Of a stretch of DNA of 64,000 bases, positions 1,250 to 57,053 are shown piece by piece (the first letter of the stretch is position 1; each line of letters starts with the position of its first letter). Source of the stretch: Chloroflexota bacterium. Lineage in GTDB: Bacteria; Chloroflexota; Chloroflexia; Chloroflexales; Roseiflexaceae. The stretch covers positions 17,741-81,740 of the forward strand of contig JBKCLM010000070.1 in the NCBI GenBank assembly GCA_046300655.1, read 5' to 3'. The position numbers and the translations under genes were made by a program. The notes under the pieces were generated by a model that was not told the DNA's origin, searched no databases, and was given only the letters and a program-made list of their open reading frames with translations.

Positions 1250-1478
1250 CTGTGATCCTCCTTGGATCGTATTCAGGTGTCAGAGCGGAACAGCGCCATT
1301 CTACCATGAGATTGTATGTCGATTATCAACACTGCATTCTGTCATGTTGTGCGCGGCCATTTCGTATTATGTGTTCGTATTGCGCACCAATCATGTATGC
1401 CTGTCAGCGTTTTTTTCCAAAAGAACAATGGTAATTTGGGGTATAATCATCGTGAATCAACCGAAGACGCAACGGAGC

Positions 1479-4286: not shown

Positions 4287-4340
4287 TCAGGCCAACAATG
4301 CAACACTGTGGTTGTATTGAATTGACATAAAAGGTGAACT

Positions 4341-6325: not shown

Positions 6326-6424
6326 TGTGGTGGATGGTTTGATTGGTTCCATTCGTGGTAGATTTGACATGTAAAAAACGCACAACCCCGTGTGTCATTG
6401 ATGTGTCTGCGAAGGGATGAATAT

Positions 6425-35789: not shown

Positions 35790-36569
35790 TTAGCGTGGTT
35801 TGGTACTAGCTGCAACAGATAAGTGTGTGAGAAACGCTAACACTCGGTGGAGATATGCAGAGGGGATCATTAACACAAGTAACTCAAGCAACCCAGCTCC
35901 GCTCAAGAGTGCCCAAAACGCACCGGCAATTTGGAGGTGGGATTGTGATGATTGAATGGCAATACCAGTTGCCCAAATCGTGCATGCAGTTGCGATACTG
36001 ACCGTAAATACAAAGAACCAATGCGTGCGTGCGGGGCCAAAAAACGCCGTGATGTAACTCAGGTGTGCGGGCAACCACTCGCCACTAAAGTTATGCACGC
36101 CGAAATAAATGTTTAATTTTGCTAATAAGTGTAAAACATAAAATAGTACTATTGTCACAAATCCTGTTGGATTGGTTGCGCCGGGAATACTCCATAACGC
36201 GCCACCAAGTAATAGGAGTGAGACCAGTTCATGATGGATGGTGCTCTTGACCGCAAAGACAAAGCGTTGGCGATTGGTGAGTGGTAAGGCTGGTAGCTCG
36301 ACCCGTTGCCCCGTGATGAAGCCTGTGTAGTAACTCGCCAAATTCCAGCCCCATACGACGGTCCCGGCGCTAAAAGACGCATACACGGCCCAGGTCTCGC
36401 TGTTCTCACGGAGCAAATACAATGCGACCGCACATGCGGCAGCGACGATACTCATACCACCAAAAGTGGCATCGTACGTCCAGCGTGCCTGTCGATATAA
36501 GATGATGATGATGCCAGTACTGACCCACCATAATACAATTGCATAACTGATGGCAATCAGGTAGTGCAT
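35790..36569 (-). CDS. DUF3623-family membrane protein (PuhE-like, 'photosynthetic complex assembly protein 2')
   Basis: N-terminal AIVLWWVSTGIIIILY matches the WW.STG block I recall for DUF3623/PuhE. Polytopic membrane protein. Starts 9 nt after the PucC-family gene. Confidence 0.55.
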   Translation of the reverse strand: MHYLIAISYAIVLWWVSTGIIIILYRQARWTYDATFGGMSIVAAACAVALYLLRENSETWAVYASFSAGTVVWGWNLASYYTGFITGQRVELPALPLTNRQRFVFAVKSTIHHELVSLLLLGGALWSIPGATNPTGFVTIVLFYVLHLLAKLNIYFGVHNFSGEWLPAHLSYITAFFGPARTHWFFVFTVSIATACTIWATGIAIQSSQSHLQIAGAFWALLSGAGLLELLVLMIPSAYLHRVLAFLTHLSVAASTKPR

Positions 36570-36578
36570 GCAAACCCC

Positions 36579-38012
36579 TTAGTAGAGGAGTTGATCTGCA
36601 GGAATGTCCTGCAATCCACTCCACGGTGAGCGAATTTCACCGTTTGCGAGGCGGCGATCAATGCGTCGGATAACCATGTAGCCAACCATGAATACTAAAA
36701 ACAACCCGGCTACGATATAGACACCGACATACCCCAGTACGACGCTTTGTGTGGTAGCCTGAATATAATCACGGGCGATACCGCCTCCAATCGTGCCGAA
36801 TCCTTGTGCAAGCGCCTGTACAACGCCCCACATCCCCAAAAACAAACCAGTATGGGCGTTGTCGGCAAGCTGCATGACAGTTGCAATACTCCCGACAATA
36901 AATAATCCGCGCCCCATACCAATGATTGAGACGCCAAGCTGGAACAACCAAGCCCCACCCCAGAACCCACTTAACGACACCACGCCAAAACCGACAATCC
37001 CGGCCATGCCACCCGCAATCAGGAGTTTGCCACTCGCGTGACCGCGCCATAACCACCACCCAGCGATGATAATTGCGATAATCATCGAGACACCCCAGAT
37101 GGCCGTCAAAAATGTTGTGGCAGTGACGCTCATGCCGAGTACCTCGCCACCGTATGGCTCAAGCAGAATGTCGTGTGTGCCGAATCCTAAGGTCGCCACG
37201 AAAAAGATGAGAAACATGCCGCGGAGGGCTGAGCTTTGCCAGAGGGTGCGGATTGATGTACCCAACGACTGGCGCGCCTGGCGACTCACCTCGGCAACTA
37301 AAGTCCCGTCAGGGCGCATTTTCTCTTGATTGAATAACGCCAAAAACGTGCAGATCAAAAAGACGACCGCACTACCTTGCATCACCCGAATCAGGTTGGA
37401 ATGCGTGTAGTTGGTCAGTAAAAGACCGACCACTAACGAGCCGACAACCGTGCCAATCACCAGCATTAACCATAGGATGGCTAATGTTTTGCCCCGCTCT
37501 CCATCGCTGGTAATATCGCTGACCAATGCCAAATAACTCGTCTCGACAATATTGACTCCAATGCCGTATACGAGAAAGATTGCAATGCTAAATACGTAGA
37601 CCATCCAACCTTGGAGATTGCTCTCTGGACTGAATAGAATGAGCGAAAACGGCGCAGTTGCTAACCCGCCATACGTCAACATGGCGCCGAGTACTAAATA
37701 CGGCGTGCGCCAACGACCTTCCATCCGCTTTTGGTCTGATATATGTCCAACTACTGTGCGGATGGGTGAGACAAAGTAGTGAATCGACATCAGCGCTGCC
37801 ACAAATCCTGCCGAGATAGCAAGCTCGTGGATCAGGACGCGATTCAGTGTGCCCGTAATCGGTGCAAGTGATACACCCATGCCGAACTGAAACAACCCGA
37901 GTCGCAACACACGGAGCCACCATGGTGCATCAGGATGGCGCATAATCCATGCACGTAATTCCAACCAGCGGGCCTGGATACTACGTGGCAGAAAGGTGCG
38001 TTCACTCGCCAT
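36579..38012 (-). CDS. PucC/LhaA/Bch2-family MFS protein (BCD family)
   Basis: LRLGLFQFGMGVSLAPITGTLNRVLIHELAI...PIRTVVGHISD matches the PUCC-family N-terminal signature. 12-TM layout. Start moved to ATG 38012, with GAGGAG 5 nt upstream. Confidence 0.8.
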   Translation of the reverse strand: MASERTFLPRSIQARWLELRAWIMRHPDAPWWLRVLRLGLFQFGMGVSLAPITGTLNRVLIHELAISAGFVAALMSIHYFVSPIRTVVGHISDQKRMEGRWRTPYLVLGAMLTYGGLATAPFSLILFSPESNLQGWMVYVFSIAIFLVYGIGVNIVETSYLALVSDITSDGERGKTLAILWLMLVIGTVVGSLVVGLLLTNYTHSNLIRVMQGSAVVFLICTFLALFNQEKMRPDGTLVAEVSRQARQSLGTSIRTLWQSSALRGMFLIFFVATLGFGTHDILLEPYGGEVLGMSVTATTFLTAIWGVSMIIAIIIAGWWLWRGHASGKLLIAGGMAGIVGFGVVSLSGFWGGAWLFQLGVSIIGMGRGLFIVGSIATVMQLADNAHTGLFLGMWGVVQALAQGFGTIGGGIARDYIQATTQSVVLGYVGVYIVAGLFLVFMVGYMVIRRIDRRLANGEIRSPWSGLQDIPADQLLY

Positions 38013-38189
38013 GTTGACTCCTCGATGTCTCGTGTCGATATCCTTCGCTTTGGGGCAATCATAGCACATCACTTTTTTGAAATACTATTAATTTGCTGCG
38101 GTATATATTTTGTGTAATTGATGTATATGAAATGTGTGAGTTAGCGAATATTGCATAAGCAATATCCAGAGTCCGGGTAGAATACCTAT

Positions 38190-43565: not shown

Positions 43566-43637
43566 ATTCCCTACATAACTACCAATGAACGGCGGGACGG
43601 GTGATAATCACTCGCCCCGCTGTTGTGCGTATGGCGG

Positions 43638-43652
43638 TATAATTTAGCCATG
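43638..43652 (+). promoter_or_regulatory. TATAAT box 6 nt upstream of the helicase ATG (candidate leaderless transcript)
   Basis: TATAAT is at 43638-43643 and the ATG at 43650. No SD sequence lies between them and no convincing -35 element is present. Confidence 0.3.
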
Positions 43653-45830
43653 CATATACCAGATCCGACCGTCGAACAACTTGCCGTTATCGCCCACCCG
43701 CTCCGCCAGCATGCCCGCGTCTTGGCAGTGGCTGGCTCCGGCAAAACTACCACCATCGTGTTGCGCGTCGCCTACCTCATCAAAGAGCTGGGCGTTGATC
43801 CACGCGGCATTCGCGTCTTTGCCTATAATGCCCTCGCCCGTAACGAACTCAAAGAGCGGATTAGCCTGCTGTTGCCCGACAAAGCCGACCAACCGCGCGT
43901 CGACACGTTCCATTCATTTGCCTTTCGCTGGATAAAGCAAGCCATCAGTGAGCAAGTGATCCCCGAACCGCTTGAATGGTGGCTCGACGACGAAAGCGAT
44001 AAATCGCGCCTGTTGATGCACCGTTCGATTCAATCACTCGTGCAAGAAGGCATCATCGAGGATGGTGCGGTCGATGTCGATGCGGTATCGGCTGCCATCA
44101 CCCTGTGGAAGGCTGCCCTCATTCCAGCAGGCAGCGAACGCGCCGCTCATGCGAGTAGCAGCGACATCCCACTCGTCTATGCCCGCTACGAGGAGATGCG
44201 GCAGTCGTTGCAGGCCGTCGGGTTTGATGATTTTGTCGGCATGATGCTCGATTTGGCCGACAATCATCCGCAATTCTGGCGCAAAGTCGTTGGTGGCTTG
44301 CGCGTCTTGATTGTCGATGAGTACCAAGATGTGAATTTTGGCCAGCAGTTACTCGTGCAAAAAATCGCCGCCACGAATGTCGATGTGATGGTAGTCGGTG
44401 ACGACGATCAGACCATTTATGAGTGGCGTGGTGCCCGCCCCGATTATCTCATTCAGCGCTTCGGCCAAGGATTAACACAGCGTAATATGGTCGATTACCC
44501 GTTGACCGTCAGCTTTCGCTTTGGCCCGCTGCTGGCCCAAGTCGCCCACAACGTGATTGTGCGCAATAGCGTGCGCTTTGCCAAAGACTTGGTCTCAGCG
44601 AGTTTGCAACGGGCTACGGCTGTGCAAATCATTGAGGATCGCACTAGCCAAGCTGGCATCATCGACCAAGAGGTCAGTGAGCAGTTGCAGACCTGGCTGA
44701 GCGATCATCCGGCCTCGTCGGTAGTGGTACTCGGGCGCACATTAGGGCAACTTCAGGCGTTTGAGATGGCCTGTTTGCTCAACGAGATTCCCTATCGCGT
44801 GTTGGGTCGCGGTCCGTTTTATCAACGTCGCGAGCATATGATTTTGGCCGATTATATGCATCTGGTGAACCACATTGATGCGCCGCTCGATGAAGCACTC
44901 GGGCAGGTGTTTATACGGATTGCCAATACGCCGATGCGTGGTTTGCAACGCGATTTCCTAAAGCAACAATTGCGCCAAGCGGTGCACCAGGAGCAGACGC
45001 TCCGGCAGGTGCTGGTTGAGTTGAGCACCAGCGAATCGTCGTCAGCCCAGGTACGTGCCCGCCTTGACGACATGCTCGCCATGTTCGAGCAGTTGACACG
45101 CATGCTTCGTGACGAGGCAAGTGCCTACGAAGTGTTGACCTGGTTGACGCAACAGTTACGTCTTGACGAGCATTTTGTGCGGGCCTACGGCCGCGGCGAG
45201 GCGGCCGCCGAGCGTTCAATTGCTGTGAGGCATTTGATTGCCGTCGTCGAGTATTTGTCAGTGCCGGCAGCACAGTTTGTCACGTGGCTCCGCGAGTTCG
45301 ATCATACCGCCGGCAAAGAAGAGCCTGAGCAAGTGTTGTTGACCACCGTCTACCGCGCCAAGGGCCTTGAGTACGACCATGTGCTTATTCCAGCAGCGCT
45401 TGAGGGCTACATGCCGGCCTACGGCAATTCGCCCGAGGTGTATGACCGCAGCGACCCCACCGCCGTGCCGGCCGGTTCGGATGCCATCGAGGAGGAGCGC
45501 CGGCTCTTTTATGTGGCCATCACCCGCGCCAAAGAGTTGCTGACGATTGGCGTGCCATTACCGAAGCCTGGCCTGGGTCGCGATGCTTTACCTACCGCCA
45601 CGCCATCGCGCTTTGTCAAAGAGATGAAACTCGAGCCGACCGAGCAGATTCTGCAGAGTGCCACCGACGACGCTGATGCGCTGACCGAATCGTTACTAGA
45701 ACACGGAGCTAGCAAGGGACTGCTGACGCACCTCGCACGCTATGTAGCCGATGATCCGCAACTCCTCAAGGTGGTGCAGTCATTCAAGGGTGAAATTTGG
45801 CCGATGCGCCCGTTGAAGTTAAAAAAATAA
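43650..45830 (+). CDS. UvrD/Rep/PcrA-family superfamily-1 DNA helicase
   Basis: VLAVAGSGKTTT (Walker A), LIVDEYQDVN (motif II), VGDDDQTIYEWRGA (motif III), TVYRAKGLEYDHV, LFYVAITRAK. Confidence 0.9.
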   Translation: MHIPDPTVEQLAVIAHPLRQHARVLAVAGSGKTTTIVLRVAYLIKELGVDPRGIRVFAYNALARNELKERISLLLPDKADQPRVDTFHSFAFRWIKQAISEQVIPEPLEWWLDDESDKSRLLMHRSIQSLVQEGIIEDGAVDVDAVSAAITLWKAALIPAGSERAAHASSSDIPLVYARYEEMRQSLQAVGFDDFVGMMLDLADNHPQFWRKVVGGLRVLIVDEYQDVNFGQQLLVQKIAATNVDVMVVGDDDQTIYEWRGARPDYLIQRFGQGLTQRNMVDYPLTVSFRFGPLLAQVAHNVIVRNSVRFAKDLVSASLQRATAVQIIEDRTSQAGIIDQEVSEQLQTWLSDHPASSVVVLGRTLGQLQAFEMACLLNEIPYRVLGRGPFYQRREHMILADYMHLVNHIDAPLDEALGQVFIRIANTPMRGLQRDFLKQQLRQAVHQEQTLRQVLVELSTSESSSAQVRARLDDMLAMFEQLTRMLRDEASAYEVLTWLTQQLRLDEHFVRAYGRGEAAAERSIAVRHLIAVVEYLSVPAAQFVTWLREFDHTAGKEEPEQVLLTTVYRAKGLEYDHVLIPAALEGYMPAYGNSPEVYDRSDPTAVPAGSDAIEEERRLFYVAITRAKELLTIGVPLPKPGLGRDALPTATPSRFVKEMKLEPTEQILQSATDDADALTESLLEHGASKGLLTHLARYVADDPQLLKVVQSFKGEIWPMRPLKLKK

Positions 45831-45888: not shown

Positions 45889-48800
45889 TTACCAACCAAA
45901 CGGTTCGAAGGCGGGGATTTCTTGTGGCGGCACGAGCGTGCGCCCTTCGGCGCATATCGCCCGGGCAGGGCAGTGGCGACAGTAGTGGTGCTCTGGACGA
46001 GCTGGGTAATCCCCCTCAACCAAATGGGTGGCTGCCGTTGCCACACGTTGTTGCGTTTGACGCATCAACAGTTCATCATTGGGGATTGGAATCATGGTGC
46101 CTGTACGTGCATGATAGACCGCAATTGCTGGGATAGATGCGTGTTGTTGTTGGCGCATCCATGCTTGGGCATAGAGGCGTAACTGGTCGCCGTGTCGCTC
46201 AACGATGCCGTCCATGCTCTCGTCCGTTTTGTAGTCGACAATCATGCCGTTCCATTGCCGATCAATCACGCCCGTCATTTCGACGAGCGCCCGTGGTGTC
46301 TCGATGCGCCAGCGTATTCGTTGCTCGACCTCGTGCAGTCGCGGTGGGTGTTGGCCGAGCGGTGAGGCAAGGTAGGTCGTCAGCATCGATATCAGTAGAT
46401 GCATCGTATCTGGATTGACGGGTTTGCCGTAGCGTTGTACCGCCAACTGGCACAGGTGCTGCGCATCGGCATGTGGGTGATGGGCATGTATCTCTGTGGC
46501 AAAGTGGAAGAGCGATCCAATCGCCCGGGCTGACTTGCCGACCGCCTGTGGGTCATCCGCGATTGGTAGTTCGATTGGCTCTTGGGCCAGACTTTGCCAT
46601 GCATCAAGATGCGAAGGCAGTGTGTAATGCCCGGCTGGCGCGTCTGTCCAATGTGGTGTGCTCACTTGTTCCTCAACTTCGAGCAAATCATCAAGCCCGC
46701 TCCGACGCTGGAACCGATAGCGTTTGGGGCATTGCATGAGTTCGTGCAATCCGGACGGTGAGAGCGAGATGATTTGCTTGCTGGCGATGCGCTGTATGTG
46801 TGGCCGCTGGTTAGCGATTGTCGGTTCATCAGGGAACGGTTCATTGATTACCGTCACATCAACTGGTGTCGTTGTAACACCATGAATGGGTGTGTCGTTG
46901 AGGGAATCGTACATCTTGCGGAACAGGCTGTCTCGTTTTTTGCTGTTCTCAGTCGCACTGACCATCAAAAAGCGTTTGGCACGGGTGAGTGCCACATACC
47001 ATAATGCAACAACTTCGTTGTATTTTTGTCGTTCAAGCTCGAGGGATGCAGTGCGTTGTGTACTGTCTTCGCTGCTCGGATCAACCAAAACGCCGCTTTG
47101 GAATGTCATTTGTTCGTCGGATCGCACATCAAATGCATGGGCATCCGGCACAAATACCGCCATAAACTCCAGTCCTTTGGCCGCATGCACGGTCATGATT
47201 TGTACCGCATTTGCGTTGGTTTTTAGTTCGGGCGATGCGCTATCAGGCTCATGCCGAATGCGTTCGAGTAACTCACGAATCAATTCGTGACTTGATCCAG
47301 TCTGCATGGCACGGCAGTCGTTGATGAGTTTGGTGAGCATGCGCTGGCCGTAGGCACCGTCGCGTTGCCATAAGCCAAATTGTTCGATTGTCGTGGCAAA
47401 CCATTCAGCTGGGGGGAGTTGCCATTGTAGGTGTTGTGCGTTGATAAGCGTTGTTACAAACTGTTGGATGTGTGGGTGTAATTCGCCGCTCTTCTGGAGC
47501 AAACGCCATAGGCTGGTATCGCGTTCTTGTTGGCGAATTGCGCGCAAGCCTATTTCGTCACAGGTGCGCGTCGCCGAAAGCAGCGCCCGTGTAAGTGATT
47601 GTTCGTTGGCCGGGTCGTAACAGGCGATCAACAGGTGAATCGCATCGAGAATCAGCGGTCGATGATAGAATGGATCGCTTTTGCCGCGATCAAACGGAAT
47701 TCCTGCACGTTCCATGGCGTTGGCGTAGATATCAAGGTGCGTGCGCTGGCGAAGTAACATGGCCATGTCGCCATAGTCAATACCGTGCGTCGTGTGGAGC
47801 TCACGCATGCGAGATGCAACGGCGTCAGCCTCGTTGTTACGATCGCCCATCAACCAGAATCGCACGCAGTCATCAGGCGCTGAGGGCGTTCCAGGTGGTG
47901 GATGGAGTTGTGCAGTTGCATCGAACTCTACTGGGGTATTGAACCGGTATGTGGCCAGACTGCGATTCGCCACGGCGAGAATTGGTGCCAGTGAACGCCG
48001 ATTTTCGGTCAAATTTACTGTGACCTGGCTCTGTTCTTTCATGTGCACGATATTTTGCACGTTTGCTTGCCGCCAGACGTAAATGGCCTGTCGTGGGTCG
48101 CCAACGACTGTGCGGGCAGCGGGGCCGTGTGGACGTGGAGTGATGCTTTCGAGGAGGTTGGCCTGCGCGCTACTCGTGTCTTGGTACTCATCAACCATGA
48201 TGTAGCGCACTTGCTCGAAGAGTTCGGGGAAGCGCTCCTTAATCACAGGTACGATTTGAATCAAATCATCGAGATCGAGTTGACCACGGAGACTCAAATC
48301 GTGGGCGCGGGCTGCGAAGTTCCACGCCAATAACTGGCCAAACAGTGTATGTTTGTCACTGACTGACTGTGTCTTTTTGATGGCATTGATAAGCTTTTCG
48401 GATGTGAGCCCCAGGCCTTTGGCGTCAGCAATCATCTGATTGAGTGTGGCAAATATTTTCTCGTCATTCCAGTCGATTTGGTCGATTAACGTATGCAGAT
48501 GGGCAATCGCCTCTTGCCAACCATGATCAAGGAAGCGCTCCCAACAGGCTTCGCCAATGGTATCGCGTTCGCGTTCCTCACAAAACGGTTCATCCGGGTT
48601 CAGGTTAAGGGCAATGCTCCGTTGCAGGGCAAGGCGTGCGGCAAACGCATGAAACGTCGAAATATGCGCTTCGGCCATGTCAATCCGACTAAACGGCAAC
48701 TGTTCGTTGATGACGGTGTACATGATGCGCGCCCGCATCTCGGTGGCGGCTTTTTCGGTAAAGGTCAACACCACAATGTTGCGTGGATGGAGCGCTGGGT

Positions 48801-48942
48801 TGTGTGTAAGCAACTTGACATAGCGTCGTGCTAAGGTTTCGGTTTTGCCAGTGCCAGCCCCAGCGATGATGGCGAGTGTGGCGTCCGGCGCGGCGTTTAG
48901 TGCTTGTTGTTGCCCTATATTTGGAATAAATTGCTGCGTCAT
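45889..48942 (-). CDS. addA: AddA/RecB-type helicase-nuclease (UvrD-like motor plus C-terminal PD-(D/E)xK nuclease with Cys cluster)
   Basis: IIAGAGTGKT, IMVDEYQDT, VGDPRQAIYVWR, TVHAAKGLEF, YVALTRAK. Nuclease GVIDRQ...IVDYKTD. Cys pattern QCPKRY...CRHCPARAIC. Start moved to ATG 48942, with AAGGAA upstream. Confidence 0.85.
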   Translation of the reverse strand: MTQQFIPNIGQQQALNAAPDATLAIIAGAGTGKTETLARRYVKLLTHNPALHPRNIVVLTFTEKAATEMRARIMYTVINEQLPFSRIDMAEAHISTFHAFAARLALQRSIALNLNPDEPFCEERERDTIGEACWERFLDHGWQEAIAHLHTLIDQIDWNDEKIFATLNQMIADAKGLGLTSEKLINAIKKTQSVSDKHTLFGQLLAWNFAARAHDLSLRGQLDLDDLIQIVPVIKERFPELFEQVRYIMVDEYQDTSSAQANLLESITPRPHGPAARTVVGDPRQAIYVWRQANVQNIVHMKEQSQVTVNLTENRRSLAPILAVANRSLATYRFNTPVEFDATAQLHPPPGTPSAPDDCVRFWLMGDRNNEADAVASRMRELHTTHGIDYGDMAMLLRQRTHLDIYANAMERAGIPFDRGKSDPFYHRPLILDAIHLLIACYDPANEQSLTRALLSATRTCDEIGLRAIRQQERDTSLWRLLQKSGELHPHIQQFVTTLINAQHLQWQLPPAEWFATTIEQFGLWQRDGAYGQRMLTKLINDCRAMQTGSSHELIRELLERIRHEPDSASPELKTNANAVQIMTVHAAKGLEFMAVFVPDAHAFDVRSDEQMTFQSGVLVDPSSEDSTQRTASLELERQKYNEVVALWYVALTRAKRFLMVSATENSKKRDSLFRKMYDSLNDTPIHGVTTTPVDVTVINEPFPDEPTIANQRPHIQRIASKQIISLSPSGLHELMQCPKRYRFQRRSGLDDLLEVEEQVSTPHWTDAPAGHYTLPSHLDAWQSLAQEPIELPIADDPQAVGKSARAIGSLFHFATEIHAHHPHADAQHLCQLAVQRYGKPVNPDTMHLLISMLTTYLASPLGQHPPRLHEVEQRIRWRIETPRALVEMTGVIDRQWNGMIVDYKTDESMDGIVERHGDQLRLYAQAWMRQQQHASIPAIAVYHARTGTMIPIPNDELLMRQTQQRVATAATHLVEGDYPARPEHHYCRHCPARAICAEGRTLVPPQEIPAFEPFGW

Positions 48943-48955
48943 TATCGTTTCCTTG

Positions 48956-51826
48956 TTATTGTGCATCATCACAGATATGGGTAAATGGGCAATACATACA
49001 TTGTCGTGATGGTTTCGCGGGATACGGTGCATGACGCATTTGGTGCATAATCCTGAGCAGATCCTGCTGAATAACGCCGTGCAAGTCATTGATGGATACG
49101 TTTAGGCCGATGTGTGAGTTCCCCGATTTGACGAATTCCGTGGCTTTGTCAACAACGTATACACTACGGAGCTGACTATTTTTTTCACCTTGCCCCAAGT
49201 AAAATAGCGTGAGCGTGTCAGCTGCAGGCGTGAGTTGCCACCCTGGTTGGTTGAGACCGAGTAAATAAATCGGAATTTGGAAGTTCGAGAGCTCCTTGCC
49301 CTCTTTTTTCATAAAGCCATTGAGCAAATCAGAGTATGCTTTGGGCTTGCCACTCTTGTAGTCAATAATCTCGTAGCGTACATATGACCCCATATGCACC
49401 ATGTCGATGCGGTCGATTCGCCCGACAATGCGCATGCCCTCGATGCGAAAATCAAGTTGGTGTTCGAGCAGGATCGGGCGCCGATTGGGTATTTTGGTGT
49501 AGAGCTCTTGCTCGTACTGCCACCAGCGCTGTAACATGCCGTGGATGCGCAACCAGTTGCTCCGCAGACGTAGACCGGTGTCAAAGCGTTGTTGCCAGGC
49601 TTGTGTTGCGCGGTAGGTGCCACCGCCAGGGAGTGCAACTTCATGGCCGTGCCAAGCGGCGTGCAACGCGCTGTGGAGCCGCTGCGGCATGACGGCCAAT
49701 CGAGCGCGGAACGCCTCAAGCGATTCACTGCGCAAGTCGACGTTCTCAGTTGCACCTGTGCCTAAAACGGCACACAACACCTCGTGAGCCAGTGCGCCCA
49801 TATCGAGACTACGCTCATCGACCTCACTCTCATCATCATGCCCAAGCTGAATCACTTTCTCGTAGTAGTAGCGCCGTGGACAGGCGAGGTATGTGCTGAT
49901 TTGACTTGCCGAGAACGAGTTATTTGTCAACAGCTGAATCGGTTGGACAACCTCACGCATATGTTGGTGCGCCTGTGGCAATGGTAACGTCGGTACACAT
50001 GCAATCGACGGGTGATGCACTTGCACGTGACCGTCACGATCAAATGTCGCGAGCCCATCGAGGAGCTGCGCCAGGTATGGCGTCGCCAGCTGGGATTGAC
50101 CGTTTGCCCCATACTGGGCAAAACTGAGCACGACGTGTTGGGCATGACTAGCAATTAGATTCATAAAGCGGCGTTGCTCGCGGTGTTGCCATGCATTTGG
50201 CTCTGTCAGTGCCGGCTGTGCAGGCCGATAATCGGGGTGGAATACGGCGCATAGTGCTGATTCTGCAATCAACTGGAAGCCTTGCGTTGCCCGTGGGGCG
50301 ACATGCTCGCTTAATCCCATCACAATCACACAATCGTGAGCACTGTGTGCACCGGTCGTTGAGATCGTGAGTGGAATCGTGGTGCGATAGAGTTCACGCA
50401 TGGGCGCTGGTAATGTATCAACGCTGAGCAGTAGTTGATCTCGTTGGTGAACGGTGAGTTGATGCTCCTGCGCTAATTGATCGATCTCGTCGATGCGCTC
50501 CAGCCAGGTGCGAGTCTCGCGGAGCCAGCTATCACGTACATCGACCGGGTGATTTGTGGACTCCCAGGCCCACATAATTGCCCCACTTTGATTGAGTAGT
50601 TGACGAATTTGCGGTGCAAGTGCTGCATCTGGCTGTATCGCACCAAACCAACCATGAATGTGTTGTGTGTGCGGGTGATGCGGATCCGCACTATACTTGC
50701 GGGCGACGTTGGCCGGTACTCCCACAAATGGCAGCATCATGGTTGTCTGGATGAGGCGTTGCTGGTCAACCGGGTCTGGACTCTCGAGCCAGCGCAATGC
50801 AATCCGTGCGAGATTGATAATCGGGTTGATGTAATCAGGTGGTGCAAGGGGCGGTAAGTCAATGCCCTGTTGTACTAACGCGGCACGAACATGCGGCACC
50901 AACGATTCGTCGGCACAGACAATCTGCACGCTCCGCCCTTTTTGTAGGAGTTGGTGACAATGATTCGCGACGGCGTGACACTCATCGACAATGGTGGCAG
51001 CGCCAGCGTGCCAGACCTCTTGATTTGTGAGCCGTGTGCCAATCAACCCAATGGTGATTGGCGCATTCATTGCCGAATCCGTCATGCGCATCACGAGTTG
51101 GCTGCCAGTACTCGTAGGCGCTGCCCATGTGGTCGGTGTCGCGTGCTGTGTCAGCCATGTATGGAGGATCTGTTGCTCAGGTAGGTGTGCAGTACCACTT
51201 ACCCATGCACCGAGCCACATGGCGTAGCGTTGTGCATAACGTGATAGCACGGCGAGTTGGGCAGGTTGGGCGTGTTGGAGCTCACACACCGCGAGGTATT
51301 CATACTCGAGCGGTGGTAGTTCGTGCGCAAGTACATGCAAGGCTACATCGTCGTACCCGATGACATCGTGTTGATTAAGAAGGTTGACGTAATGATTGTA
51401 AATTGCGCCTATTTCGTGCGTTGTATCCAGCTCCACATCGACGTTGTGCCACTGTCGCCGATGACTCGAAATCCAACTCAGGAGTTGGCCAACCTCACGC
51501 ACTGCACCACGATTACTGCCATAGGTATGCCATAATGCGCCATTGGCGCGTTGCCACGCTTGTTGGACTAGCATGGCGCGACTCGTGGCATTTAATACTT
51601 TGCGTGGGCGTTGATATTGTAGTTGACGAATCAAAAATGACTGGAGCGTCATGACGCTGATGTTGGCGTGCTGTCGATCGGTTAGCATCGTCTTGAGCGC
51701 CTGCGCATGCGTTGCATTTGCGCTGATAATTACGGTGCGGCGTCCTTGAGACTTGGCGACCACGAGGCTGATAAAGTCGGGATGAAATAGTGCTTGTGGC
51801 GAATCGTAGCAACATGTTTCAATCAT
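48956..51826 (-). CDS. addB: AddB-type subunit (degenerate helicase-like N-terminus plus C-terminal iron-staple PD-(D/E)xK nuclease)
   Basis: No intact Walker A. C-terminal LACPRRYYYEK, GRIDRID...IIDYKSGK and CMYCPFTHIC. The gene ends 13 nt before addA. Confidence 0.75.
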   Translation of the reverse strand: MIETCCYDSPQALFHPDFISLVVAKSQGRRTVIISANATHAQALKTMLTDRQHANISVMTLQSFLIRQLQYQRPRKVLNATSRAMLVQQAWQRANGALWHTYGSNRGAVREVGQLLSWISSHRRQWHNVDVELDTTHEIGAIYNHYVNLLNQHDVIGYDDVALHVLAHELPPLEYEYLAVCELQHAQPAQLAVLSRYAQRYAMWLGAWVSGTAHLPEQQILHTWLTQHATPTTWAAPTSTGSQLVMRMTDSAMNAPITIGLIGTRLTNQEVWHAGAATIVDECHAVANHCHQLLQKGRSVQIVCADESLVPHVRAALVQQGIDLPPLAPPDYINPIINLARIALRWLESPDPVDQQRLIQTTMMLPFVGVPANVARKYSADPHHPHTQHIHGWFGAIQPDAALAPQIRQLLNQSGAIMWAWESTNHPVDVRDSWLRETRTWLERIDEIDQLAQEHQLTVHQRDQLLLSVDTLPAPMRELYRTTIPLTISTTGAHSAHDCVIVMGLSEHVAPRATQGFQLIAESALCAVFHPDYRPAQPALTEPNAWQHREQRRFMNLIASHAQHVVLSFAQYGANGQSQLATPYLAQLLDGLATFDRDGHVQVHHPSIACVPTLPLPQAHQHMREVVQPIQLLTNNSFSASQISTYLACPRRYYYEKVIQLGHDDESEVDERSLDMGALAHEVLCAVLGTGATENVDLRSESLEAFRARLAVMPQRLHSALHAAWHGHEVALPGGGTYRATQAWQQRFDTGLRLRSNWLRIHGMLQRWWQYEQELYTKIPNRRPILLEHQLDFRIEGMRIVGRIDRIDMVHMGSYVRYEIIDYKSGKPKAYSDLLNGFMKKEGKELSNFQIPIYLLGLNQPGWQLTPAADTLTLFYLGQGEKNSQLRSVYVVDKATEFVKSGNSHIGLNVSINDLHGVIQQDLLRIMHQMRHAPYPAKPSRQCMYCPFTHICDDAQ

Positions 51827-51987
51827 TGGCGGTATACCTTGCTATTTAATACGTAATATTGCAATAATATCATAAAAATGCATATATGTGGGTGTATTTA
51901 TATGAAATTAATGATATAATTCAATACATGCTAACGTAATTACGGCACATATACCGGGAATCAGATTGCGAGATAGGCATAATAAGT

Positions 51988-52009
51988 GTTTTCGTCAAAA
52001 ATGACGAAA
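51988..52009. promoter_or_regulatory. Perfect 22-bp palindrome in the addB / PARG-like-A intergenic region (operator or leader hairpin)
   Basis: TTTTCGTCA-AAAA-TGACGAAAA. It lies downstream of an extended -10 (TG-A-TATAAT; TG at 51912-51913, -10 at 51915-51920) and of TAACGTAAT (51932-51940). Confidence 0.4.
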
Positions 52010-52106
52010 AGCAATCATCAGATGAGTGGTATAACAAATATATCAAAGATTGCGTGAAATGAGCTTCGCGGATTTGGCAGTATTTCAAAGTGAGAGAGGC
52101 CAAGCA

Positions 52107-52934
52107 ATGTTTGTTCCCCCATTACATGTTGCACCATTGAGTGGTGATGCGTTTGATTTACCAGCCAAGGTCATCCATAATCTGGTCAGTTCAACACGAG
52201 CAATAGTTGATCGTGGCTGGTATGTGGCGCCGACGCAACAGACAGTCGTGTTCAAGCCGGCACAAGATGCGGCACGACGCCTGACGACGCGAGTATCGCA
52301 GTTAGCCAAGCCGACGAATCGTCGACGGTATGATGCGACGAGTCTGATGGTGCATAATCATACACCATTAACGGTGGGGCGTGCGTGGTTCCAGCGCGGC
52401 TATCGTGTAGCTGTTGTGAATCCAACGCCATTGCGCTTATGCCATCCAAGTTTAATGAGCAGTATTGCATCACAAAACATGTTGTTGCGATCAGGCGGTT
52501 TGGCTGAGTGTATCATCGACAGTGGTTATTACGAATTAGGGAGTACCAGTGAGCCAATTGTCAGCCCACAACTACCGCTTTTTCGTACCTATGACGGCGA
52601 TTTGCTCGATCAACCATGGGGTTGTGATGTGATTACGTTGGCCAGTGATGCGATTGATGCCGTGACATCGCCGATGCATCATGATTTTGTGCTTGATTGG
52701 TTGCACACGGTCGTGCAAGCGGTGCAACGTGTTGGTGCAAATGTGTTGGTCTTCTCGGTTGGAAACGATGTAGATGCGCCGTTAGTTGTGCGGCTGCTAT
52801 ATGAAGCATTTATGCGGGTCAAATTGCACGCTTTAGCTGCAATCAACATCGTCGTAGCCGATCAAAGTTACAATCAACGCACTTGGACCCCGTTTCAAAA
52901 ACGGTTTGATGGTGTCATGATTAGTAACAGTTAA
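52107..52934 (+). CDS. TIGR02452/DUF2263 (bacterial PARG-like macrodomain) homologue A, strongly degenerate
   Basis: Paralogue of 53926-54795, sharing blocks VAPL/VAPI, RRYDAT, GYRVA and PLFR/PFFRD..GDLL..PW. The GGG...QEE loop is replaced (NPTPLRLCHPSLMSSIASQNML) and the LGAWGCG block has decayed to VLVFSVGND. Start moved to ATG 52107, with GAGAGG upstream. Confidence 0.5.
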   Translation: MFVPPLHVAPLSGDAFDLPAKVIHNLVSSTRAIVDRGWYVAPTQQTVVFKPAQDAARRLTTRVSQLAKPTNRRRYDATSLMVHNHTPLTVGRAWFQRGYRVAVVNPTPLRLCHPSLMSSIASQNMLLRSGGLAECIIDSGYYELGSTSEPIVSPQLPLFRTYDGDLLDQPWGCDVITLASDAIDAVTSPMHHDFVLDWLHTVVQAVQRVGANVLVFSVGNDVDAPLVVRLLYEAFMRVKLHALAAINIVVADQSYNQRTWTPFQKRFDGVMISNS

Positions 52935-53812
52935 TTCGTACGGAGTAGCGTTTCAACGCTCATGGCATGGAGCGCAACAAGCGTTTCGTGGTCGAGTTTA
53001 CCGCCCTCATACCCACCAGCAAGACACGCCACAACAGCCAGCGAATGGGATTCTGCCCATTCGCTGACGTATTGTTCGCGGGCGTGAACAATCTCAGTGG
53101 TAATGCCGTGTAATCCACCGATTCGACAATCTTCGTGGACATCCATCCCTGCATTGTAAATCAACAAATCGCTTGGTTTGATGTGTGATTCGACATGTGC
53201 GAGCAGGTTGTGTAGGGTTGCCATGTACTGATCTGCGCTTGTCACACTGCGGCGTACATGTGGAGCACGGGCGACATAACTGTCATAACCACTCGTATGA
53301 ATGTCAAGGTGGAACAGTCTGTCCCAATCGGCACACATGCTCATTGTGCCACCGCCACAGTGTGCATCAGCATCCACGATGATAACGTTGCGATTAGGAT
53401 AATCTGCCAGGATCTCACCTGCGGCAATGACCAACCCATTCAACGTACAAAAACCTGCTCCTTGTGTTGCGCGTGCATGATGGAACCCGGCACTTAGCGC
53501 ATACGCGCGCCCGTGTAGGCAGGCGTACTGCGCAGCATCACGCATTGCGCCGTTTTGGGCGGCCACCGAACGCCACATCATCTCGTCCCACATAAATCCC
53601 TGTGATTCCGCAATATCAATAGGATCACCAGTGATGATTGCATCTACATAGGTGCCATCGTGGTAACGTGCAGCGATGTCTGGCGTTATGGGAGCTGGTT
53701 GTGTTATCTGCCACCCACGGTTAACTAGGTACGCGGCAATGTCTGCCCCTTTGCGGGTTGTGTCGAATGCGTGTGCCGTTTTGATGGTATCTGGATGATA
53801 AAATACTGCCAT
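52931..53812 (-). CDS. Histone-deacetylase-fold (arginase/deacetylase superfamily) Zn amidohydrolase, about 293 aa
   Basis: SAGFHHA (His-His dyad), GFCTLN, IVDADAHCGGGT, NAGMDVHEDC and LAGGYEGG (catalytic Tyr). Start moved to ATG 53812; the track start is TTG. Its stop overlaps the convergent gene's stop within TTAA. Confidence 0.7.
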   Translation of the reverse strand: MAVFYHPDTIKTAHAFDTTRKGADIAAYLVNRGWQITQPAPITPDIAARYHDGTYVDAIITGDPIDIAESQGFMWDEMMWRSVAAQNGAMRDAAQYACLHGRAYALSAGFHHARATQGAGFCTLNGLVIAAGEILADYPNRNVIIVDADAHCGGGTMSMCADWDRLFHLDIHTSGYDSYVARAPHVRRSVTSADQYMATLHNLLAHVESHIKPSDLLIYNAGMDVHEDCRIGGLHGITTEIVHAREQYVSEWAESHSLAVVACLAGGYEGGKLDHETLVALHAMSVETLLRTN

Positions 53813-53863
53813 TTTTGAAAATCTTTCTAAAAACCACAAATGTGGACATATAAATAATTATAA

Positions 53864-53884
53864 TAACGTATAACGTATAACGTA
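53864..53884. repeat. Three perfect tandem TAACGTA heptamers at overlapping divergent -10 boxes
   Basis: TAACGTA occurs at 53864, 53871 and 53878. The plus-strand TATAAT (53859-53864) abuts the heptamers. The minus-strand TATAAT (53862-53857) overlaps that box. Confidence 0.6.
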
Positions 53885-53925
53885 TGCATGTATTGTATCA
53901 CGATTGTTGATGGCAAGGGAGCGAG

Positions 53926-54795
53926 ATGCCAAGTAATTTAGCACTCACAGTTGCGCCAATCACCCCTGATGAGTTTGTTATAGCACCTGCGGTGATGCGT
54001 AATATTCGTCATGCAACCCAAACAATCTTAGCACGTGGTACCTATACGAATCCAGATGGTGTAGATATATCGATTGATGCATTACAGGCATCTGCACGTA
54101 CCAAGCAGCGGAGATATGATGCAACCCAACCGATTGATGTGACGGGTGGGCGATATGGACACTCCCAACTATACGTGTATAACCAGACGGCGTTGACTAT
54201 TGCCCGGGAGCGTGTTCGTCAAGGATATCGTGTGGCGATGTTACATTTTGTGAATCCTCCGTACCTGCAAAGTGCGAATTCTGTGCGCCCCTCACAAGCA
54301 GATAGTTTGATGTGGTCGTCGAGCTTGGCGTATTGTTTACAGGATGTCGAATGGCAAGGTGTGTCGCCGTTTTATGATGATACGGTGGTCGTGACGCCGC
54401 AGATGCCGTTTTTTCGAGATCATGGTGGTGATTTGTTGTCAGAACCATGGCGAAGTAGCGTAGTGCATGCTGTGGCGATTGATGCACATGCTGTCCGCAC
54501 ACAAATGCCGGAACACACCGCTGAGGTACCGCAGCTGATGGTACAACGCGCAATACGTGTATTACAAGCTGCTGCGACTACACGTGCGAATGTGCTTGTG
54601 CTCGGGGCATGGGGGTGTGGATGTGCCGGGCATGATGCAGCTGTGATGGCTGCCATATGGCACGTAGCAATTGCACAGGCAAAAGTACGGATATTTGGGA
54701 TTATCGATTTTGCGGTGGCTGACATTAAACCATCGCGTCCGACGTTTACATCATTTTATCAACAGCTCCATCAGCAATATATTGCACTCACATAG
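53926..54795 (+). CDS. TIGR02452/DUF2263 (bacterial PARG-like macrodomain) homologue C with altered catalytic loop
   Basis: The block order matches the family from memory: ...RGTY.NPDG, VAMLHFVNP, SQADSLMWSSSLAYCL, PFFRDHGGDLL, VLVLGAWGCGCAGHD, FAVAD. The expected NPGGGF...AQEES loop reads NPPYLQSANSVRPSQADS instead. Confidence 0.65.
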   Translation: MPSNLALTVAPITPDEFVIAPAVMRNIRHATQTILARGTYTNPDGVDISIDALQASARTKQRRYDATQPIDVTGGRYGHSQLYVYNQTALTIARERVRQGYRVAMLHFVNPPYLQSANSVRPSQADSLMWSSSLAYCLQDVEWQGVSPFYDDTVVVTPQMPFFRDHGGDLLSEPWRSSVVHAVAIDAHAVRTQMPEHTAEVPQLMVQRAIRVLQAAATTRANVLVLGAWGCGCAGHDAAVMAAIWHVAIAQAKVRIFGIIDFAVADIKPSRPTFTSFYQQLHQQYIALT

Positions 54796-54871
54796 TGGTA
54801 GAGACGATTCACTCTGGTGTATAGTATAAATGTCTACAAGTAGTGACTTTGTACGTACATAGGCAGTAGTG

Positions 54872-55630
54872 ATGGATAGTCAAAGTGATCTTCGTCATTC
54901 GGTAGATCAACTCCTGCACGTCTTTCAGCAGGGGTATGAACCGTTTGTGATAACTGCAATTCGTAGCATTCATGGCACTAGTTGGCTCGATGTCATCAAG
55001 AATACGCCAGATCTGCGAGTGAATACGCAACAACAGCCGTTGCGTCTTGATGCGACAGCGATTGTGCGCATCATGCTTCATCATTGGGATAGTACCTTCT
55101 CGCGCGTGTTGGTTGCCACCGACCGGAGCATGCTGTCCGAAGTTCGATTGATGCGGAATAAATGGGCGCATCAGGGGAATATAACTGTTGATGATGTCGA
55201 TCGACTCGCCGATAACGTCACGCGCTTACTTGTGTCGATTAATGCGCCAAACGCTCACCAAGCCAAACAACTGCGTGAGGACTGGCGCATGCGTCGGTAT
55301 CGCAAACCGCGTACGGTGCCAGTATGGGCGATTGGTGTAATGGTGGGTGTATTGGTGTTGGGGGTCATTGGTTGGTGGTTTTGGGAGGGCAGTGCTGTAC
55401 CTAATAACGAAAATCGTAGCCAACCAGCGCAGGTGACGCGTACACCGGCTGCAACTGCGAACGACAGCGCATTCCCTTGTCAACCAGGACAAATCAAAGC
55501 AAACCCACGTTCAATGATTTATCATCTGCCAGATGGTGCTTATTATGCAACCACCAAGAACAGCGACGTGCAATGTTTTGAGTCGGTTGAGGCGGTTGAG
55601 GCTGCTGGGTTTCGCAAATCGAAACGCTAG
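54872..55630 (+). CDS. Swt1-like HEPN domain, single TM segment and C-terminal sunset domain
   Basis: LDATAIVRIMLHHWDSTFSRVL...EVRLMRNKWAHQ carries the RxxxxH HEPN motif. TM: VPVWAIGVMVGVLVLGVIGWWFW. C-terminus: CQPGQIKANPRSMIYHLPDGAYYATTKNSDVQCFESVEAVEAAGFRKSKR. GTG 54869 is an alternative start. Confidence 0.65.
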   Translation: MDSQSDLRHSVDQLLHVFQQGYEPFVITAIRSIHGTSWLDVIKNTPDLRVNTQQQPLRLDATAIVRIMLHHWDSTFSRVLVATDRSMLSEVRLMRNKWAHQGNITVDDVDRLADNVTRLLVSINAPNAHQAKQLREDWRMRRYRKPRTVPVWAIGVMVGVLVLGVIGWWFWEGSAVPNNENRSQPAQVTRTPAATANDSAFPCQPGQIKANPRSMIYHLPDGAYYATTKNSDVQCFESVEAVEAAGFRKSKR

Positions 55631-55640
55631 CGTGCATTTA

Positions 55641-55677
55641 GGCCAATCAAACATCATTTAGAGGTGTTTGATTGGCC
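55641..55677. terminator. 13-bp perfect-stem hairpin between the convergent HEPN gene and the small minus-strand gene
   Basis: GGCCAATCAAACA (55641-55653) pairs perfectly with TGTTTGATTGGCC (55665-55677) around an 11-nt loop. The right arm overlaps the last codons of the minus-strand gene. Confidence 0.5.
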
Positions 55678-55927
55678 GGCGGCGACCTTCGTGGCGACCA
55701 TGTTTCATGTAGTGGTCGAACCCTGATGCAAATCGTCCTTGGCGTACATATCCGCGTACATCTTGGTTTTCGGCTAAATAGCGTTGTTCATCAAAATCAG
55801 GTGGTGGTTGAAGCCACGCTGATGGTAATTGTGCCAAGATGTCATCATATTGTGTGACAGGATTGCTTTTGGTTGCAGATATAACACGCAATACGCGCTT
55901 CACGAGTTGAGTGAACTGTGTCAGCAT
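55658..55927 (-). CDS. Small protein (89 aa) carrying one copy of the FDxxxYLxxNxDV...G...HY..(H)G..EGR motif seen in polysaccharide-biosynthesis proteins
   Basis: FDEQRYLAENQDVRGYVRQGRFASGFDHYMKHGRHEGRR. GGAGGG lies 4 nt upstream of ATG 55927; the track start is TTG. Confidence 0.5.
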   Translation of the reverse strand: MLTQFTQLVKRVLRVISATKSNPVTQYDDILAQLPSAWLQPPPDFDEQRYLAENQDVRGYVRQGRFASGFDHYMKHGRHEGRRRPIKHL

Positions 55928-56023
55928 GATGCCCTCCAAGCCCAAACCAATAATTCTAGGTGTTTTGTGATAACTCTACGTACTACGAACTATAGCACAC
56001 ATTTGTGATTTGTGCAGATGCAT

Positions 56024-56053
56024 TTGACGTTGCCAAAGTTTGTGCGGTATGAT
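56024..56053 (+). promoter_or_regulatory. Candidate sigma70 promoter of the polysaccharide locus
   Basis: TTGACG (56024-56029), 18-nt spacer, TATGAT (56048-56053), about 110 nt upstream of ATG 56163. Confidence 0.35.
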
Positions 56054-56162
56054 TACCGTGAATTGCTCGGCAGATTCGTAAGATTTGTGTGCACAACATC
56101 ATCGTGTTTCCACGTGTTTTTTGGCTTTTTTATACATGTTGTGATTTGAGTTAGGGGCAGTT

Positions 56163-57053
56163 ATGACCGTCAATACTAACGTATACACGCCTGGTGTACT
56201 GTCACAACACGTGTTGTCGCTCACTGACAGATTTGCTGTTCTCCATAATCCGCTGGCGCATCAGATAGTGGTCGATATTGAGTCGAAGATTGCTTCACCA
56301 CAGACTGTCTTATCGTTTGATGTGTTTGATACGCTCTTATTACGCAATCATCGTGCAGAATTAACGCGGTTCTATGATGTTTCGGGATTGGTGGCGTCGT
56401 TATTGGCCCAACGCTATCAGGAGTCAATCCGCCCCGAGGATGTGCTCATGGCGCGTTTGATGGCCAATCGTCTGTCATACCGATTGTCGCCTACCCGTGA
56501 TGGGTGTCGTGAGGGTACGATTACTGATATCTATCGTCTGATTCTCGAGCAATTACGTGTGCCCGCCACAGAATCAACTATTCAGGCGTGTATTGAGATT
56601 GAGTTAGCGTACGAAGTAACACAGTTGACAGTCAATCTACCGTTACTTGCCATGACACAACACCATATTGCACGCGGTGGGCGAGCCATTTATGTGAGTG
56701 ATATGTATTTGGGTGTGGCACACATCAATCAACTGTTAACTCGTTTGGGAGTCGAGGTTTCGTTGTTTGCTGCCACATATTCGAGTGCTGACACGATTCT
56801 TTCGAAGCGCAGTGGCAAGATATGGCCATTGATTCTCAACGAGCTTGGTATCACCGCTGCGCAGATGTTGCACATTGGTGATTCGTTGGTGAGTGATTAT
56901 CAAAGCCCACGCACGCAGGGGATTCCGGCTGTTCATGTGCCGATTCCATTGCAGATGCGTCGTGACATTATGGCTGATCATGGTGCACTCGTTCACCAAC
57001 TCGAATCAATGCACCTGCCGATTCAGAGTTGGATGGCGCCACCGCACTGGTAA
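56163..57053 (+). CDS. HAD-like hydrolase (FDVFDTLLLR type) of a polysaccharide locus
   Basis: SFDVFDTLLLR (motif I), VSDMY, and HIGDSLVSDYQSP (motif IV-like). Confidence 0.6.
   Translation: MTVNTNVYTPGVLSQHVLSLTDRFAVLHNPLAHQIVVDIESKIASPQTVLSFDVFDTLLLRNHRAELTRFYDVSGLVASLLAQRYQESIRPEDVLMARLMANRLSYRLSPTRDGCREGTITDIYRLILEQLRVPATESTIQACIEIELAYEVTQLTVNLPLLAMTQHHIARGGRAIYVSDMYLGVAHINQLLTRLGVEVSLFAATYSSADTILSKRSGKIWPLILNELGITAAQMLHIGDSLVSDYQSPRTQGIPAVHVPIPLQMRRDIMADHGALVHQLESMHLPIQSWMAPPHW

Follow-up and report, generated by a model that had tools for sequence, protein, structure and literature searches.

We describe here four neighbouring genes, A to D, on a stretch of chromosome from a Roseiflexaceae-type Chloroflexota bacterium (assembly GCA_046300655.1, contig JBKCLM010000070.1). 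The whole stretch that was analysed is 64,000 nucleotides long and will be hereafter referred to as the window. A and C are related to the bacterial PARG-type macrodomain proteins, B has the fold of the HDAC-type Zn-dependent deacylases, and D combines a HEPN domain with a membrane anchor. Comparison with related genomes indicates that D, C and the divergently oriented B, with A as an optional member, form a real, lineage-restricted gene cluster, which is probably co-regulated. This arrangement is written below as D-C<>B. An initial annotation had placed the four genes at these positions, and they are indeed present there; the same gene calls were obtained on six independent freshwater metagenome contigs. 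The genes are the following.

52107 to 52934, plus strand: gene A, 275 amino acids; a second, strongly degenerate PARG-fold paralogue, optional component.
52931 to 53812, minus strand: gene B, 293 amino acids; class-IV/cluster-5-like Zn-dependent deacylase with all catalytic residues intact.
53926 to 54795, plus strand: gene C, 289 amino acids; homologue of TIGR02452/bacterial PARG in which QEE is changed to QAD, GGG is lost and the GAWGCG loop is retained.
54872 to 55630, plus strand: gene D; Swt1-type HEPN domain, one transmembrane (TM) helix and a C-terminal sunset domain.

Conservation of the gene cluster

The distribution of these genes was surveyed from two sides. On the HDAC side, the GTDB species genomes were scanned with an alignment of the B subfamily, which gave 80 loci, and the neighbouring genes were searched with our own hidden Markov models (HMMs). 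On the PARG side, we surveyed 80 metagenome loci with a canonical TIGR02452 gene (48 span 4 kb or more) along with 11 viral loci. Individual loci are cited below by their L numbers.

The arrangement HEPN-sunset <- PARG-like <> HDAC is found in 15 of 15 Roseiflexaceae-type loci, in which the HDAC shares 46% or more identity with B, and the orientation of the arrangement is constant. C is present in all 15 genomes, D in 14 (it is missing once, in L025) and A in four. The HDAC gene between two PARG paralogues, by which the initial annotation had characterised the locus, is therefore a correct description of the window and the state of a sub-lineage, not the general layout. Across the lineage the gene order is IlvD/Edd, an optional ABC cassette with or without glycosyltransferase (GT) and HAD genes, D, C, divergent B, optional A, optional UvrD, AddB and AddA. 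In the window, AddB, AddA and UvrD flank the set, as had been proposed, and correspond to the following genes.

43623 to 45830, plus strand: UvrD/PcrA-like superfamily 1 (SF1) helicase; directly beside B in most relatives.
45889 to 48942, minus strand: AddA-type UvrD-helicase/PDDEXK nuclease subunit, gene call of 1017 amino acids; conserved neighbour.
48956 to 51826, minus strand: AddB-type helicase-nuclease subunit (PDDEXK_1); conserved neighbour of A-D.

Insertions and deletions occur only at two borders of this block, between D and IlvD and between B and AddB; there are none within the D-C<>B core. Identity to the window across the lineage is about 50% for B, about 40% for C, about 40-45% for D, 33-45% for AddB and about 40% for UvrD, while that of IlvD is 85%. 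With such low values for B, C, D, AddB and UvrD, the lineage is deep for fast-evolving genes. D-C<>B behaves as a unit over this deep divergence. Purifying selection acts on all four genes. The ratios of non-synonymous to synonymous substitution rates (dN/dS), calculated for the window against the closest relative that has been sequenced, are 0.064 (A), 0.065 (B), 0.114 (C) and 0.077 (D), and 0.055 for AddB; they are approximate because dS is saturated. The low ratios of A and C show that these "degenerate" proteins are maintained and are not decaying.

Outside the lineage, the arrangement of a HEPN gene and a PARG-like gene divergent from an HDAC gene was found in none of the other 65 HDAC loci, which belong to Actinomycetota, Gemmatimonadota, Pseudomonadota, Planctomycetota, Verrucomicrobiota, Ktedonobacterales and other Chloroflexia. 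Beside the canonical PARG genes of the 80 metagenome and 11 viral loci there was no HDAC, D-like HEPN, sunset, UvrD or AddAB gene, and on viral contigs only canonical PARGs were seen, with no HDAC or HEPN near. On plasmids we found only distant canonical PARGs, mostly of Deinococcus, and no close relatives. The recurrence in unrelated genomes that the initial annotation had suggested looking for is not borne out by any of these loci. C-type and D-type orthologues were recovered from this lineage only. Co-location limited to close relatives and a conserved context had been named in advance as what would speak against a functional set; about half of this is what we see, as the arrangement is restricted to one lineage, yet it behaves as a unit with its own operator.

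Most of the 15 lineage loci carry Roseiflexaceae or Chloroflexota titles, and three (L014, L018 and L015) are titled "uncultured Klebsiella sp." or "Thermoflexus hugenholtzii JAD2". These metagenome-assembled genomes (MAGs), which contain the IlvD-HEPN-PARG-HDAC-AddAB block, are probably mislabelled or contaminated bins.

Spacers and predicted operators

The genes had been described as set off by AT-rich spacers that share the motif TAACGTA, and both statements hold for two of the three spacers. The AddB-A spacer (280 bp, 33.9% GC) and the B-C spacer (113 bp, 31.0% GC) both rank among the five 100-bp segments richest in AT in the window, which has a mean GC of 51%; the C-D spacer, with 39.5% GC, is ordinary for the window. 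TAACGTA is present in the first two, while the C-D spacer holds GTACGTAC only and no TAACGTA. Overall, the window has seven copies of the motif versus 4.15 expected, which is not a significant enrichment. Four of the seven copies lie within the two AT-rich spacers, and three of them are in tandem. The elements of these spacers are listed below.

51989 to 52010, unstranded: inverted repeat TTTTCGTCA-AAAA-TGACGAAAA, then a -10-like TGGTATAAC; upstream of A, candidate promoter/operator of A.
53834 to 53845, unstranded: predicted palindromic operator CCACAAATGTGG; in the divergent B-C spacer, 22 nt ahead of the B start codon (ATG).
53864 to 53884, plus strand: (TAACGTA)x3; phased ACGT-N3-ACGT repeats between the predicted operator and C.

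The predicted operator, CCACAnnTGTGG with the core CCACAwwTGTGG, occurs once per locus and in the B-C spacer only, both in the window and in 12 of the 15 species loci. In the other 65 loci, which amount to about 0.9 Mb, the core has one chance match. The operator palindrome is longer in L013 and L016, where it is perfect over 24-26 bp. From these sequences the element appears to be module-specific, conserved in the lineage and common to B and C. The ACGT cores next to it are also conserved in the B-C spacers of the orthologous loci, where they are paired or tripled and mostly 7 bp apart (ACGT-N3-ACGT). The module has no gene for a transcription factor, and no cognate regulator of the predicted operator is found nearby.

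The segment upstream of A is of a different type. The combination TTTTCGTCA-N4-TGACGAAAA with TGGTATAAC is conserved upstream of A in L011, L012, L016 and L025. Furthermore, an A-type promoter segment remains directly 3' of the HDAC stop codon in three relatives that have no A (L009, L013 and L019), which indicates that A was deleted in them. We rejected the reading of this inverted repeat as an intrinsic terminator; it is flanked by a T-run and then an A-run on both strands. The C-D spacers have in common the element TGnTAnAGT, which resembles an extended -10. Gram-positive-type LexA boxes (GAAC-N4-GTTC) were found at none of the module, AddB and UvrD promoters, an Rfam search of positions 51000-56500 with E up to 1 gave no known RNA element, and a consensus scan for sigma-70 promoters and terminators did not rise above shuffled sequences.

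Structure and motifs of the encoded proteins

The folds assigned at first sight were checked by profile-HMM searches and stand: B, C and D score above the family cut-offs, and A is supported by paralogy and by fold. B matches Hist_deacetyl (PF00850) with 111.8 bits (cut-off 27.9). Its H111/H112 dyad, the Zn ligands D149, H151 and D224 and the catalytic Y268 are invariant among the 19 aligned members of the subfamily. Cluster-5 deacylases are recognised by two foot-pocket motifs, xGGxHH, which stands instead of RPP, and xGGY; the corresponding residues of B are SAGFHH and AGGY. The best solved relatives of B are of this group (E 1.7e-45): VcHdaH (9GKV) comes first, and the other top PDB matches are chrHDAC11-1/A (9RJE) and liHDAC11/B (9GZ5/9RJD). 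By its residues, B is thus predicted to be a catalytically intact class-IV-like Zn deacylase. It is like the class IV/cluster-5 enzymes VcHdaH (9GKV/9GKY) and HDAC11 of clades A and B in its size, about 295-320 residues, and in having SxGxHH and xGGY instead of RPP. In contrast to the characterised enzymes, which have no described partner proteins, it belongs to a subfamily of its own. This subfamily is widespread, its members have about 295 residues, and it is marked by an invariant N-terminal FDTTRK motif and by ESQGFxWD.

Outside the lineage, HDACs of this subfamily stand behind a PotABC-like transporter in betaproteobacteria, behind a VWA-like gene in Mycobacteriales, or have no recurrent partner. 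The first of these contexts was seen in the betaproteobacterial MAGs L036, L053, L062, L064, L068, L070 and L084, where the HDAC gene follows an importer made of an ATPase and two permeases. This neighbour is a hint that the subfamily may act on a small molecule resembling a polyamine. The VWA-like protein (213-250 amino acids, with a DxSGS MIDAS motif) is encoded directly upstream of the HDAC in four Mycobacteriales (L007 4914-5555, L008 5327-6004, L027 and L034). A cryptic macrodomain was considered for this unannotated upstream partner in Actinobacteria and was rejected (hhalign probability 0.2), the protein being VWA-like with DxSGS. Homologues of it (E 1e-24 to 1e-31) are also found about 1.1 kb downstream of a canonical PARG gene on three giant viral contigs (L094 7352-8068, L095 7894-8586 and L100 8039-8737), where they adjoin genes for Ro60/TROVE-vWA, GIY-YIG and cytidylyltransferase proteins. 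The VWA-like protein is an indirect, third-party link between the HDAC and PARG folds.

C scores 116.1 bits against TIGR02452 (cut-off 50) and 34.1 bits against PARG_cat_microb (PF10021/DUF2263, cut-off 23.5). It matches the PARG structures of Deinococcus radiodurans (E 3e-20) and Thermomonospora curvata (E 5e-18), and aligns with the latter (3SIG) across residues 27-279. A remains under the family cut-offs, with 37.8 bits (E 1.5e-9) for TIGR02452 and 14.6 bits for PF10021. Its paralogy to C is clear, with 30% identity over the full length (BLASTP E 6e-26), and its AlphaFold2 model (pLDDT 90, pTM 0.89) aligns to 3SIG with a TM-score of 0.75 over 277 columns (E 1e-15). A could thus be assigned to the PARG family only through its paralogy to C and the fold of this model. 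The macrodomain fold with an N-terminal helical extension is found in both proteins, in A by the model and in C by the alignment to 3SIG.

The bacterial PARG signature is GGG-X6-8-QEE, with its second Glu acting in catalysis; canonical bacterial PARGs read LNFASAxNPGGGF..AQEE and GAWGCG[VA]F. Neither C nor A has this signature, in agreement with the "degenerate" character that had been ascribed to them. C of the window reads LHFVNPPYLQSANSVRPSQAD and GAWGCGCA, in which QAD replaces QEE and GGG is absent. The Glu pair is disrupted in 16 of 16 C orthologues, in various ways (QEA, QAD, QED, QEH and YRES), while GAWGxG is retained in all 16. In the G[A,V][F,Y] patch the aromatic position varies among them: the window has GCA, and other orthologues have GEF, GRF or GAY. 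The copies of A have neither of the two loops, GGG..QEE and GAWGCG. C and A are thus like the bacterial PARGs of T. curvata (3SIG) and D. radiodurans (5ZDB) in that they are homologous and have the same fold, and C also keeps the Gly-rich diphosphate loop. They differ from them by the disrupted GGG-X6-8-QEE in all orthologues and, in A, by the lack of the diphosphate loop as well. The sequence of C predicts the loss of canonical poly(ADP-ribose) glycohydrolase activity, and the label "PARG-like, predicted non-catalytic" should be preferred to PARG.

In the loci surveyed, canonical PARG genes are found near NADAR-like, Nudix-like or NAMPT-like genes or fused to Tpt1, and never beside HDAC, HEPN or AddAB genes. 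The recurrent neighbours in L102-L181 are NADAR/YbiA-like (14), Nudix/NrtR-like (10) and NAMPT-like (4), named by eye and not by HMM. These neighbours point to a context of NAD/ADP-ribose salvage, which C of the module has left.

D was proposed to be a membrane-anchored Swt1-HEPN protein, and the searches agree: it scores 80.7 bits against HEPN_Swt1 (PF18731, cut-off 27.5) and has one TM helix, and its sunset domain is also recovered (NF051437, 49.1 bits, cut-off 27). The protein can be described as a HEPN domain (residues 1-125), a TM helix (about 148-172), a linker rich in Pro and Thr, and the sunset domain (208-251). The HEPN motif R95-N-K-W-A-H100 is intact and reads R-N-[KR]-W-A-H in all the orthologues aligned, so that D looks like an active Swt1-type HEPN and is a candidate RNase. 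Six basic residues before the TM helix and the Pro/Thr-rich linker after it suggest a topology with the N-terminus inside. The fold search with the whole protein returned only weak matches to the HEPNs of Csm6 and AbiV and a local match of the sunset domain to N-Ada (1U8B), with a probability of 0.99 and an E of 0.4. P0228, a membrane-anchored protein of the staphylococcal-nuclease type (PF00565) from the same Chloroflexi lineage, also carries a sunset domain, fused at its C-terminus. This fusion, together with the local N-Ada match, suggests that the sunset domain binds nucleic acid.

D resembles the membrane-associated HEPN RNases for which Anantharaman et al. 2013 proposed stimulus-dependent RNA degradation, in that its R-x4-H HEPN of the Abi2/Swt1 family, which looks active, is linked with a TM segment and a small extra domain. 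Its architecture (HEPN, TM helix, Pro/Thr linker, sunset) falls outside the three groups of that work and is confined to this Chloroflexi lineage; judged by its domains, it would extend this class of membrane HEPN proteins.

Interpretation of the cluster

The cluster is a novel combination of known kinds of parts, confined to uncultured freshwater Chloroflexi. We found no described system that combines the PARG-like, HDAC and HEPN folds: PADLOC (PADLOC-DB v2) gave no match for A-D or for the adjacent 95-residue open reading frame (ORF), and the literature yielded no link between PARG or macrodomains and HDAC, in agreement with the first impression that no named system applies. The nearest comparisons are the SirTM operons and the DarT-DarG pairs, which at the operon level likewise join a macrodomain to a (de)acylation or ADP-ribosylation enzyme and act in a stress response. 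The module differs from them in having no writer (sirtuin, ART or DarT) and in having macrodomains of the PARG type that are apparently catalytically disabled. Moreover, B is Zn-dependent and not NAD-dependent, and hence makes no O-acetyl-ADP-ribose.

We tentatively favour, with somewhat less than even confidence, a lineage-specific, co-regulated cluster in which a non-hydrolytic PARG-type protein C, and optionally A, works with the deacylase B and the membrane HEPN protein D near AddAB/UvrD. It is supported by the co-occurrence with C in 15 of 15 loci, the absence of insertions and deletions inside the core, the private predicted operator, the low dN/dS and the invariant motifs of B and D. 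D-C<>B would have arisen once in freshwater Roseiflexaceae-type Chloroflexota and become fixed on the chromosome beside the DNA-end-processing genes of AddAB/UvrD. C, and perhaps A, may be non-hydrolytic binders or pseudoenzymes for ADP-ribose, an ADP-ribosylated target or a related nucleotide, and not erasers of poly(ADP-ribose). B would remove an acyl group from a protein lysine or from a small molecule in the same response. D may act as a membrane-tethered RNase, whose cytoplasmic HEPN domain would be controlled via the TM helix and the sunset domain. On this view, A-D would be a regulatory cassette tied to stress or DNA damage and not a mobile system against phages. The connection with DNA damage is suggested by analogy, since the PARG of D. 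radiodurans is damage-induced and Swt1-type HEPNs are known as fusions with SF1 helicases, which makes a neighbourhood of repair genes plausible. For the stress, defence or (acyl-)ADP-ribose signalling cassette first put forward, the folds and the position beside AddAB/UvrD are confirmed, and the behaviour as a unit and the private predicted operator speak in its favour; a defence or mobile setting and a nearby writer or sirtuin were not found, and the defence or signalling role remains conjecture.

Several observations weigh against such a joint function. The arrangement has a single evolutionary origin, with no independent recurrence among the 65 HDAC, 80 PARG and 11 viral loci, and no gene fusions between the PARG-like, HDAC and HEPN folds were seen. 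There is no ART, PARP, SIR2 (sirtuin) or DarT domain in the window, nor among the called genes of the related contigs, in contrast to writer/eraser operons of the SirTM-Macro, DarTG and PARP-PARG types. C of the window has also lost the hydrophobic G[A,V][F,Y] patch, which makes ADP-ribose binding itself uncertain. Each gene has its own apparent promoter, the operator of A differs from that of the B-C spacer, and elsewhere the HDAC subfamily sits in the unrelated contexts described above. The IlvD to AddA block as a whole is collinear across the lineage, which is compatible with conservation by descent.

The main rival explanation is synteny by descent, since the arrangement has a single origin and the genes appear to have separate promoters. 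In this case a general-purpose deacylase, PARG relatives that are decaying or neofunctionalised, and a membrane RNase would each have a role of their own, and the IlvD to AddA segment would simply never have been broken. We regard this as a serious possibility, only somewhat less likely than the reading above. The restriction to one lineage, the collinear block, the separate promoter-like elements, the quite different partners of the HDAC subfamily in other phyla and the individual losses of A and of D would all be expected from it. However, at an AddB identity of 33-45%, gene order outside functional units is normally eroded, and here the block has insertions and deletions on both flanks and never in the D-C<>B core. 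C- and D-type orthologues exist solely in this arrangement, and the shared B-C spacer has a module-specific, conserved predicted operator. If the genes are merely syntenic neighbours, the finding is the correct annotation of four lineage-specific genes of uncultured freshwater Chloroflexi.

A pathway of a new kind is unlikely, in which the dead PARG-type macrodomains would read an ADP-ribose-type mark or messenger that arises from DNA breaks or stress and would gate B and D. If true, it would join bacterial ADP-ribose signalling, deacylation of lysine or small molecules and RNA decay to the end processing by AddAB/UvrD.

It is rather improbable that B de-acylates an ADP-ribose- or NAD-derived or other metabolite, with a new catalytic or carrier role for C and A and with D unrelated. 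Peptide deacylase activity is weak or absent in VcHdaH and in class IV clade A, the closest solved relatives of B, for which non-peptidic substrates are suspected; the PotABC-like importer of the betaproteobacteria and the salvage-type neighbours of canonical TIGR02452 genes would also suit such a pathway, and macrodomains of the MacroD and TARG1 types hydrolyse their substrates without the Glu pair. The module, however, has no salvage or transport genes, the variation of the catalytic loop in C looks like relaxed constraint rather than a new fixed active site, and neither ligand loop is present in A.

Sensors that are pseudoenzymes are a common feature of defence systems, and an anti-phage or abortive-infection role could be imagined in which the inactive macrodomains sense an ADP-ribose-type signal, D is a suicide effector, B modulates and AddAB cooperates. 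Conflict systems often contain HEPN RNases and macrodomains, and AddAB and UvrD-like helicases act in phage restriction, but the GajB and Cas4 matches of the flanking genes in PADLOC were discounted as generic UvrD/PDDEXK similarity. We consider this role improbable as well, given that A-D themselves have no PADLOC match, are inherited vertically at a fixed chromosomal site among metabolic and repair genes with no integrase, transposase, restriction-modification or other defence gene within the 64 kb, have no close relatives on plasmids or viral contigs, show no patchy distribution of the kind left by horizontal gene transfer, and are under purifying selection of housekeeping strength, in contrast to the fast turnover typical of defence genes.

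If the genes of the lineage-specific cluster act together, they would provide the first physiological context for bacterial class-IV-like deacylases and the first conserved PARG-type pseudoenzymes in bacteria, and would connect the recognition of ADP-ribose with the cleavage of RNA, next to the principal machinery for double-strand breaks. The conserved predicted operator is a concrete handle toward the regulator and its regulon.

Flanking genes and genomic context

The range first assigned to the module, 51827-55945, holds A-D and also a minus-strand ORF of 95 amino acids at 55658-55945. This ORF does not belong to the module: comparison of related loci shows that it travels with the HAD-glycosyltransferase-ABC cassette located between D and IlvD, and so goes with the downstream polysaccharide cassette. 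It is 97% identical to its copy in L011, versus 71-86% for neighbouring genes. Its C-terminal motif, YLxxNxDV...HYxxxGxxEGR, is one that we take to be typical of proteins of polysaccharide clusters.

The true start of the UvrD-like ORF is probably ATG 43651 and not TTG 43623, with a -10-like GGCGGTATAAT just upstream.

The window is an unremarkable piece of chromosome from a phototrophic bacterium of the Chloroflexales, with genes for PucC, DUF3623, PEP carboxylase, two family III CoA-transferases, H+-PPase, MnmE, sugar enzymes and two-component systems. PEP carboxylase with the two family III CoA-transferases, and PucC with DUF3623, lie at 1344-7615 and 35790-38072, respectively. These genes are consistent with a member of the Chloroflexales that possibly uses the 3-hydroxypropionate bi-cycle.

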